DNA of 64,000 nt, from assembly GCA_046290215.1 (NCBI GenBank), contig JBKAGC010000001.1, forward strand, positions 2,936 to 66,935. Reading direction: 5' to 3'. The translations under genes were made by a program, and so were the position numbers. The notes under the pieces were generated by a model. It was not told the DNA's origin, did no database searches, and was given only the letters and a program-made list of their open reading frames with translations. This document shows, in pieces, positions 40,796-41,911 of the stretch (the first letter of the stretch is position 1; each line of letters starts with the position of its first letter). This DNA comes from Pseudomonadales bacterium. Its GTDB lineage: Bacteria > Pseudomonadota > Gammaproteobacteria > Pseudomonadales > Azotimanducaceae.

Positions 40796-41911
40796 TCAGG
40801 GCGCTAGTGTGTTCTTCGCACTGGCAAACTCATTTAGGTGAAGTGCAGCCCGCAGGTCTTCTGATGGTTGCAGTGAGCGATCATCCACAGGGATCCCTAT
40901 GGCATCAGCAATGCGAACCATGCGTTGAAAATTCGCAGCCACACTTACTGCGTCAACGACGGTTGCGCCATCTGCTGCGGCTTCAAGTTTTGATCTGGTC
41001 TCAGCCAATGCTTCGTAGTCTCGGCCGGCTAAACCCTCCGCAAGCGCAACTAGCAACTCGCCATGTTCAATACCAATGTCTGCGCTATCAACATCGCCTA
41101 TTACTCCATTGAGATTCACGTCCGTCCCGGTAGTTTGCGCGCTCGCACGGAGCATCGAAGCGTGTGCGGTGGTTCAGTAAAAGCATTCGTTATAAGAAGA
41201 AACCCGCCCGGCAACTAACTCCATCTGCATCCGGTTGATGCTGCGGTTTTCCTCTTTCACGAAATTCCCCATGCCGGCGATGGATAGGTATTGCGCACTA
41301 GAAATTTGCAGCCAATCACGTAAAGCCTGGGGTACCAGAGTGAGTGCACGCAAGACATTCGCTGTGGCGCCGTTTTGCCATAGATCCGCTTCATTGCCTA
41401 CCGCACCCTCCGGTGGAATCGTCGGCACAAACCCCATGTCTTCAACTAACATCGCCGGTCGATAGCCATCAGGCTCACCGGGCAATGGCTCTGGCAGCGG
41501 CTCTAGTGGGATGCCAAGACCACGATGAAACTCATCGATACTGAACGTCGCAACCACAATACCAACCAGTTCGACATACCGCTCCTTGCTAAAACCAGCT
41601 TCGGCATTACTCTCTACCCATTGCCGGGTAATGCGATTTTGATCTGTGATGATGCGATGGACTGCATCCACGGCACGCGCCGACAAGTCCACCGAACTTA
41701 AATGCTCGCCACTGAAATTGTACGGTGACAACGCTTGCTTGCGTGCTTTGCAGTATTCGCAATCCAGCGCTTCCCGGCTAGCCTCAGCAATGGCGACTCG
41801 CTCTGCGCCACTCCACCAGTTCCCGGGTTTTGCTAAACGCTGCCAGAAATCTCGGTAGGCAATTTTAATGTCTTGTCGAATTGGCAGATGAGTGTCAGCG
41901 AAATCAAACAT
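40796..41911 (-). CDS. AhpD/carboxymuconolactone-decarboxylase-family protein with an in-frame TGA (41174-41176): selenocysteine candidate or nonsense pseudogene
   Basis: The two track ORFs (41174..41911 and 40796..41155) are in the same frame, separated only by the TGA. The junction reads ELVAGRVSSYNECFY[TGA]TTAH, i.e. CxxXxxxH with the stop at the second Cys position of the AhpD signature. Confidence 0.6.

Follow-up and report, generated by a model that had tools for sequence, protein, structure and literature searches.

A reading frame bridged by an internal TGA

The window, that is, the whole 64-kb stretch of DNA that was analysed, carries a predicted selenoprotein gene at 40796..41911 on its minus strand, where the features of this gene described below are also found. 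This gene has 371 sense codons followed by a terminal TGA, as read from the sequence, its translation and a match to the family model NF041238. Its start codon is an ATG at 41911-41909, and an AGAGG run that resembles a Shine-Dalgarno sequence is found at 41922-41918. From this ATG, 245 codons lead to ...GRVSSYNECFY, after which there is a TGA at 41176-41174. Past this codon, the frame stays open for another 125 codons (TTAHASMLRAS...) until the TGA at 40798-40796 (40796..40798), which both the sequence and its translation place at the end of the gene. The 119-aa open reading frame listed at 40796..41155 is in effect the part of this continuation that comes after its first ATG, six codons past the internal TGA. 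Thus, the two open reading frames share a frame and are split only by the TGA at 41174-41176, as the original prediction had described. The two motifs that it had assigned to a full protein of 371 aa, a first CEYC and a second C-F-Y-Sec, are also present. The former, C51-E-Y-C54 (41750..41761), lies in the N-terminal domain, and both of its cysteines are invariant in 30 sequences. The latter, C243-F-Y-U246-T-T-A-H250 (41162..41185), is an AhpD-type CxxCxxxH motif where the in-frame UGA (41174..41176), read as the putative selenocysteine (Sec) codon U246, takes the place of the second Cys, the second position of CxxU.

A TGA-bridged frame of this length exceeds chance. In a six-frame scan of the window for a TGA flanked on both sides by 80 or more open codons, only this locus and one antisense flagellin artefact were found, and by our own estimate the probability that 125 codons continue without a stop by chance is about 0.002-0.003, given the GC content. 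UGA is nevertheless an ordinary stop in the source genome, because the terminal codon of the gene itself is a TGA. The 28 family-supported genes of the window, this one included, end in TAA (14 genes), TAG (8) and TGA (6).

Family, fold and conservation of the UGA codon

For the family searches, the TGA codon was replaced by Cys in the 371-aa product. This product matches NCBIfam NF041238 with 463.8 bits (E 4e-139, cutoff 175), and its residues 11-364 cover the complete profile (1-357 of 357). The family is named 'AhpD_rel_CFYUT, alkylhydroperoxidase-related (seleno)protein', and the motif in this name is exactly that of the window gene. When searched apart, the N-terminal fragment maps to positions 1-238 of the profile and the C-terminal fragment to positions 240-357; therefore, the TGA fills the single column between them. 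The window gene is thus an ordinary member of an already catalogued family. By contrast with this match, the AhpD core domain model TIGR00778 gives 19.7 bits, which is under its cutoff, and a search of Pfam returned no match at E <= 0.01, the CMD family (PF02627) included.

The sequence similarity to proteins of solved structure lies in the C-terminal domain. In phmmer searches, residues 191-344 are matched by the AhpD-like proteins 6k40 (E 3e-7), 2oyo and 3c1l at E values from 3e-7 to 1e-5. In these alignments, SSYNECFY[U]TTAH is placed onto SGLNRCVYCAVSH and SSINHCYYCLTAH of the solved proteins, with ..N.C.YC..H on the motif, and the second CxxC cysteine of 6k40, 2oyo and 3c1l falls opposite the TGA. 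As the alignments span the junction, they point to one AhpD-type domain that is interrupted by the TGA at its second Cys. The active site of alkylhydroperoxidase D (AhpD) of Mycobacterium tuberculosis is Cys130-x-x-Cys133-x-x-x-His137. The window protein shares with it the C-x-x-[C/U]-x-x-x-H spacing and, by prediction, an all-helical CMD-type fold, with the predicted Sec at the place of the second Cys, although the similarity between the two sequences is very low.

The fold was judged on an AlphaFold model of P0268, a Cys-form homologue that aligns with the window protein from end to end (43% identity, E 4e-102) with a Cys opposite the TGA. This model is all-helical and has two domains (pLDDT 91.3, pTM 0.92). 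Its best matches in the PDB are 2prr, 3c1l, 6k40 and 2oyo, which are AhpD-core 'peroxidase-related' proteins (probability 1.00, TM(target) about 0.72), and it also bears a weak resemblance over its whole length to the two-domain sestrin-2. As far as a model of a protein with 43% identity allows, the fold of the window protein is then an all-helical AhpD core that carries the CxxCxxxH motif. A possible internal duplication was sought by aligning the N- and C-terminal domains with hhalign. The result was not significant (E 0.12), and the two CxxC motifs were all that aligned.

The distribution of the gene was followed in species-representative genomes, where 314 relatives were found. The best 80 of these loci, which were analysed further, belong mostly to marine Pseudomonadales, OM182, Azotimanducaceae and Pseudohongiella metagenome-assembled genomes (MAGs). 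As to the two forms of the gene, Cys forms are rare, and the Sec form may be nearly fixed in a large clade of marine Pseudomonadales made up of OM182, Azotimanducaceae and Pseudohongiella-type MAGs. The best genome matches to the window protein have 63-64% identity, and an identical protein is encoded on a 5.8-kb Logan contig. In all of the best 80 loci, the tblastn alignments run across the stop and cover query residues 2-371. Codon 246 is a TGA in 83/83 copies, which are those of the window and of the 80 species-representative genomes plus two tandem paralogues, and in every one of them the frame goes on with T-x-[AS]-H-A/S-x-M-L-R. The codon alignment of the copies analysed is free of frameshifts and of further stops. 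The protein databases give another impression. Each of the best 120 proteins (62-98% identity) is a fragment of about 247 residues with N-x-C-[FY]-Y at its end, since gene callers take this TGA for the end of the gene, and the best 120 matches to the C-terminal part are all separate open reading frames of about 119 residues. Homologues that naturally end at ...NECFY had been named as an observation that would speak against the original prediction; these endings turn out to be apparent only, as the DNA runs on in frame every time.

Selection on the protein seems to be much the same on both sides of the TGA. Divergence at codon positions 1/2/3 is 0.339/0.247/0.649 downstream, as measured over 112 codons with the first 12 after the TGA left out, compared with 0.307/0.236/0.630 upstream, and the amino-acid identities are 0.587 and 0.622, respectively. 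Conservation within the motif reaches 99-100% for C, F, Y, T and H, and of these residues C, F, T and H show free synonymous variation. In the stretch of six codons that separates the TGA from the first ATG, the picture is alike: the amino acids are kept (T and H in 100%) and the third positions vary freely. Judged by these substitution patterns, the region downstream of the TGA is translated in the same frame and is under purifying selection. Finally, an exhaustive search of representatives with the C-terminal part yielded a few full-length homologues that have a Cys at this place (P0268, P0319, P0374 and P0380). They read CFYCTNAH, CFYCTTAH, CVYCASGH and CFYCATYS, and all four match NF041238. 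Hence, the alignments present at codon 246 the pairing of Sec with Cys by which selenoproteins are recognized, and the comparison of homologues that had been proposed as a check gives TGA in the 83 copies and Cys in the rare full-length homologues.

The family has been described before. In the selenoproteome of the Sargasso Sea (Zhang, Fomenko & Gladyshev, 2005), 'hypothetical protein 1' comprised four Sec sequences with a CxxU motif, a predicted SECIS element and Cys homologues, and no functional evidence was given (PMC1088965). A 2026 review mapped this protein to NF041238 (PMC13188914). There is no difference of substance between this family and the window gene, as they share the C-F-Y-U-T motif, the length, the layout in two domains and the marine metagenomic habitat. 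A different family, 'AhpD-like' or 'AhpD-like 1' (COG2128, TIGR01926; CxxU), is among the most abundant selenoprotein families of the GOS data (PMC2398784). The window protein shares with it the predicted AhpD/CMD fold, a CxxU with Sec in the second position and its occurrence in marine bacteria, and its C-terminal domain aligns with TIGR01926 and the solved members 6k40, 2oyo, 3c1l and 2prr. Nevertheless, membership in this family was rejected. The match to TIGR01926 (peroxidase-related enzyme) reaches 48.3 bits against a cutoff of 81.8 and is limited to residues 182-344. Moreover, the 'AhpD-like' selenoproteins have a single domain of about 180-200 residues, whereas the window protein has 371 residues in two domains, with an additional N-terminal domain of about 180 residues that has its own CxxC and is not found in them. 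Thus, the AhpD-type selenoprotein of the original prediction stands as far as Sec at an AhpD motif is concerned, but it corresponds to 'hypothetical protein 1' and not to the abundant 'AhpD-like' family of the surveys of the Sargasso Sea and GOS data.

A candidate SECIS hairpin downstream of the UGA

In what follows, nucleotides are counted with + positions from the U of the UGA. The best-supported SECIS core spans +23 to +37 (41140..41154) and reads UGCUC-[CGUGC]-GAGCG in the window. Its stem is formed by the pairs G24-C36, C25-G35, U26-A34 and C27-G33, closed by a U-G wobble (U23-G37), and its apical loop is C28-G29-U30-G31-Y32 (41149-41145), where G29 is 41148 and U30 is 41147. In the family, the RNAalifold consensus is UGCUC-[CGUGY]-GAGCR. 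The four core pairs are complete in 80/80 sequences, where they have undergone one compensatory change from C-G to U-A (L081), one change from C-G to U-G (L038) and two from G-C to G-U. The covariation support is therefore thin, because the element is almost invariant and holds only one compensatory change in its core. The stem may extend downwards through C20-G39 and G21-C38 with A22 bulged (41138..41157), a weakly supported addition that comes from a constrained fold; pair 21-38 is found in 72/80 sequences and pair 20-39 in 52/80, with 4 double changes.

The main evidence for this element comes from synonymous sites. In the codon alignment of the 80 copies, 152 conserved columns have a degeneracy of 4-fold or higher. 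For these, synonymous entropy has a median of 1.88 bits, and only 4 of them fall below 0.5 bit. The four frozen columns are consecutive, namely Leu-CTC, Arg-CGT, Val-GTG and Ser-AGC at +25 to +36, and the Thr/Ser codon that precedes them is biased to NCG. A similar sequence, UGCUC-CGUGN-GAGY, is kept in four divergent Sec-form genes (on five contigs) whose C-terminal parts are 34-39% identical to that of the window. Three of these four genes have U23-A37 in place of U23-G37, and loop position 32 is free among them (U, C or A). The hairpin is absent from five Cys-form copies, where the Leu codon is CTT, TTG or TTA, and so the constraint goes with the UGA rather than with the protein.

Thermodynamics is of little help in this case. 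The 66-nt region folds no better than shuffled sequences (MFE -10.9 kcal/mol, z = +1.63), and thus folding energy alone supports no hairpin and the evidence must be comparative. The core itself has a stability of -4.8 kcal/mol, and the best constrained extension with flanking pairs one of -9.9 kcal/mol. The bSECIS model describes an upper stem of 4-16 bp, a loop of 3-9 nt and a distance of 16-37 nt from the UGA to the loop, as well as a G within the first two positions of the loop and a G or a U after it (PMC13188914). The GCUC/GAGC hairpin falls within this geometry, with a 4-bp stem plus a U-G/A closing pair, a 5-nt loop and a 24-nt spacing. Its stability is borderline, and the MFE threshold of bSECIS (<= -7.5 kcal/mol) is reached by only 63% of the family copies. 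A likeness is also seen to the SECIS of E. coli fdhF and the consensus of bSECISearch, which are hairpins within the coding sequence just 3′ of the UGA with an upper stem of 4-5 bp and a 5-nt loop where a G and then a U occupy positions 2-3. The window hairpin is, by comparison, shorter and weaker than the fdhF element, and it reaches the MFE threshold only with the additional flanking pairs. In the fdhF SECIS, the G and U of the loop are G23 and U24, so those of the window lie 6 nt further from the UGA.

Other pairings of the same region were considered. The hairpin that the original prediction had proposed, GCU(U)CG/CGAGC at 41161-41141, can be drawn there and shares its 3′ arm with the UGCUC-[CGUGY]-GAGCR element, but it is not what has been conserved. 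With positions 16-21 facing 32-36, it is 77.5% paired over the family, with pair 18-34 in 10/80 sequences, no double changes and a positive median energy. In the window, it has an energy of -2.8 kcal/mol and a 10-nt loop with a G only at the third position, which puts it outside the bSECIS model. The alternative pairing CGCAC/GUGCG at 41168-41144, from the same source, can be drawn as well, but its 15-nt loop also lies outside that model. A long hairpin favoured by MFE (10-38) is pairable in 93%, and compensatory changes are missing from it. The frozen C36 stays unpaired in this fold, which is also broken by A32 in divergent members; consequently, this hairpin was kept only as a minor alternative. 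Judged by sequence comparison, UGCUC-[CGUGY]-GAGCR is thus most likely the functional SECIS hairpin, in preference to the one first proposed.

Probable decoding of the UGA and its significance

Our main reading, to which we give a probability of about 0.93, is that UGA codon 246 would be a real Sec codon within one gene for a 371-residue, two-domain oxidoreductase related to AhpD. The match to NF041238, the TGA in all copies, the purifying selection past it, the Cys forms, the solved AhpD-like proteins that align across the TGA and the freeze of synonymous sites bear out in this way the central claim of the original prediction, namely that a UGA for Sec stands where an AhpD-type CxxCxxxH motif has its second Cys. 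In the standard bacterial pathway, SelB-GTP-Sec-tRNA(Sec) would bind the small SECIS hairpin within the coding sequence, whose loop begins 24 nt past the UGA and presents G-U at positions 2-3, as the ribosome nears the UGA. Sec would then be inserted at U246, and 125 more codons would be translated up to the real stop. In the protein, redox cycling would proceed through a selenenylsulfide between C243 and the Sec of C-x-x-U-x-x-x-H, with the assistance of H250, and the C243/U246 centre might communicate with the N-terminal C51/C54 pair. Peroxide or disulfide reduction may be the activity, which is a guess at the level of the family. In the literature searched, no experimental evidence of selenium incorporation was found for the NF041238 family.

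The genes for such a pathway were sought around the locus. No tRNA-Sec, other RNA family or tRNA of any kind was detected in the 64-kb window (Rfam gathering thresholds and ARAGORN), and no tRNA-Sec in 60 related loci (ARAGORN). Likewise, selA, selB and selD were not found in the window, either with NCBIfam or by tblastn with E. coli SelA, SelB and SelD. The NCBIfam scan covered open reading frames of 150 aa or more that do not lie antisense within larger ones, plus the 121-aa neighbour at 42027-42392. The tblastn search also returned none of the three in the flanks of the 80 related loci, which together with the window amount to 1.4 Mb, and its sole match was a weak one to a GTPase domain in L065. 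A host without the Sec machinery is very unlikely, to judge by the comparative data. The window itself is chromosomal. It holds a flagellar cluster at 1.7-38.4 kb that resumes at 62.4 kb, and the gap of about 24 kb is occupied by unrelated genes, the selenoprotein gene among them. No conserved gene neighbourhood was observed, as the neighbours in the window do not recur in the 80 loci, where the most frequent neighbour cluster is present in at most 19/80 once overlapping antisense open reading frames are set aside.

There are other ways in which the interrupted frame could be explained. It might represent two separate genes, one for a 245-residue protein that ends at the TGA and another for an independent 119-residue protein that starts at the ATG at 41155. 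This is how public annotation presents it, as adjacent hypothetical proteins (for instance, KF911_11230 and KF911_11235), and the Met at 41155 is conserved in 96%. Nevertheless, the six codons between the TGA and this ATG, which include H250 of CxxUxxxH, are constrained as amino acids in the same frame while their third positions are free, and this speaks strongly against two independent genes and leaves practically no room for a pseudogene. In addition, the AhpD fold and the NF041238 profile each run across the junction as one unit, full-length Cys forms exist, and no purine run of the Shine-Dalgarno type precedes the ATG at 41155. This Met codon also sits at the 5′ edge of the hairpin region, with its U and G being hairpin positions 23-24. 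Taken as two genes, the locus would be very improbable. A recently inactivated Cys-form gene would need just one base change, from TGC or TGT to TGA, and the window does lack visible Sec machinery. Such a nonsense pseudogene is, however, a practically negligible explanation, as the TGA is kept in 83/83 copies, from genomes with protein identities of only 56-64%, purifying selection is undiminished downstream of it, and the copies analysed are intact in frame.

A further possibility is that the UGA is recoded to an amino acid other than Sec. This could be Cys, through a tRNA-Sec-like tRNA and a SelB-type factor, or it could be Trp or Cys through near-cognate readthrough stimulated by the hairpin. 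Systems that recode to Cys in place of Sec have been described in a few bacteria, and the inserted amino acid cannot be read from the sequence alone. Against this, NF041238 is curated as a selenoprotein family, the alternation of Sec and Cys at this column is typical of selenoproteins, the G-U of the hairpin loop is the signature of SECIS elements that bind SelB, and UGA acts as an ordinary stop in the window. Recoding to another amino acid thus appears highly unlikely, and the reading of codon 246 as Sec is the one that is followed here.

In practice, gene callers of the Prodigal type split this gene into 'hypothetical proteins' of 245 and 119 aa in essentially every MAG that carries it, and some of the C-terminal pieces have even been misnamed, for example as 'DNA-binding phage protein' or 'FliE'. 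Reading the UGA as Sec restores one redox enzyme of 371 aa and marks the organism as a selenium user. Within its family, which has been catalogued, the gene is nothing out of the ordinary. The family was predicted in 2005 together with its CxxU motif and its SECIS, and it has a curated HMM. The scientific addition is therefore small. It consists of the fixation of the UGA in the 83/83 copies examined, and of the narrowing of the SECIS core to 15 nt by the analysis of synonymous sites with the Cys forms as a control.

A broader proposal, which we regard as speculative and rather doubtful, is that the Sec form has become essentially fixed in this large clade of marine Pseudomonadales and that the N-terminal CxxC and the C-terminal CxxU work as a sestrin-like intramolecular relay of selenosulfide and disulfide. 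If this fixation and this relay were true, abundant heterotrophs of the ocean would need selenium to carry out an uncharacterised antioxidant or redox step, and in the near-invariant core of 15 nt nature would provide a clean model for a minimal element that binds SelB.

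Genomic setting within a flagellar cluster

A large flagellar gene cluster occupies the window in two parts, at 1688–38385 and 62428–63966. The first part carries the genes for FliI, FliH, FliG, FliF, sigma-54 regulators, FliD, flagellins, FlgL, FlgK, FlgJ, FlgI and FlgH, while FlgG and FlgF lie beyond the gap. Between FlgH and FlgG/FlgF there are ~24 kb of unrelated genes, which include those for an Fe-ADH, the selenoprotein (40796–41911, minus strand), a DnaB-C-like "DNA helicase" (268 aa), a GST, a thiolase, a CoA-transferase, a taurine-dioxygenase-like protein and a xanthine-dehydrogenase-type Mo enzyme. 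This stretch looks like an insertion or island within the flg/fli region. The Mo enzyme, of the xanthine-dehydrogenase / 4-hydroxybenzoyl-CoA-reductase type, is encoded as three subunits at 57595–61213 (minus strand). Its scores against models of "selenium-dependent xanthine dehydrogenase" are far under the cutoffs and, therefore, it does not count as evidence for the use of a selenium cofactor.

Three filament or junction proteins of the cluster are unusually long, all encoded on the minus strand: a 1513-aa ORF (20702–25243) with a flagellin match over its C-terminal 350 residues, FliD (942 aa; 17218–20046) and FlgK (1013 aa; 32651–35692). A flagellin of normal size (437 aa; 25355–26668) adjoins the 1513-aa ORF. 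The cluster also contains two TPR/methyltransferase ORFs (12783–14879 and 27419–29224), which may be flagellin-modification enzymes.

Carriers, copies and neighbors of the selenoprotein gene

Sec-form genes with 56–61% identity occur at four loci (L014, L077, L059 and L076) in MAGs that bear the labels Limisphaerales, Flavobacterium, Rubrivivax and Burkholderiales. The remaining carriers all belong to the Gammaproteobacteria, and the presence of the gene in these four MAGs is due to either binning contamination or horizontal transfer.

Some genomes hold two tandem copies of the gene. Both are Sec-form in two Azotimanducaceae MAGs, with the TGA at about 9387 and 10736 in one (L028) and at about 10736 and 12045 in the other (L034); at a third locus (L085), both are Cys-form, and the Cys codons lie near 729 and 1879. 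At a divergent Sec-form locus (L090), a glutaredoxin-domain gene (230–670) lies directly upstream on the same strand and is a possible redox partner of the selenoprotein; it is not a conserved neighbor among the 80 genome loci compared.

Annotation and context of the UGA codon

Public annotations present the selenoprotein gene as two adjoining "hypothetical proteins", for instance, KF911_11230 and KF911_11235. In some JGI records, the C-terminal fragment goes under the name "DNA-binding phage protein", in others under "flagellar hook-basal body complex protein FliE". Such splits and names, exemplified by protein matches P0053/P0155, P0126, P0127, P0135, P0157 and P0164, are clearly misannotations.

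In the family alignment around the UGA (A2, columns 7–13; window 41179–41173), the codon on its 5′ side is TAC in 78 of 80 copies and TAT in the other two, and the base on its 3′ side is A in every copy, as part of an ACN Thr codon. This pattern may reflect a sequence context that is preferred in Sec decoding or in anti-termination.
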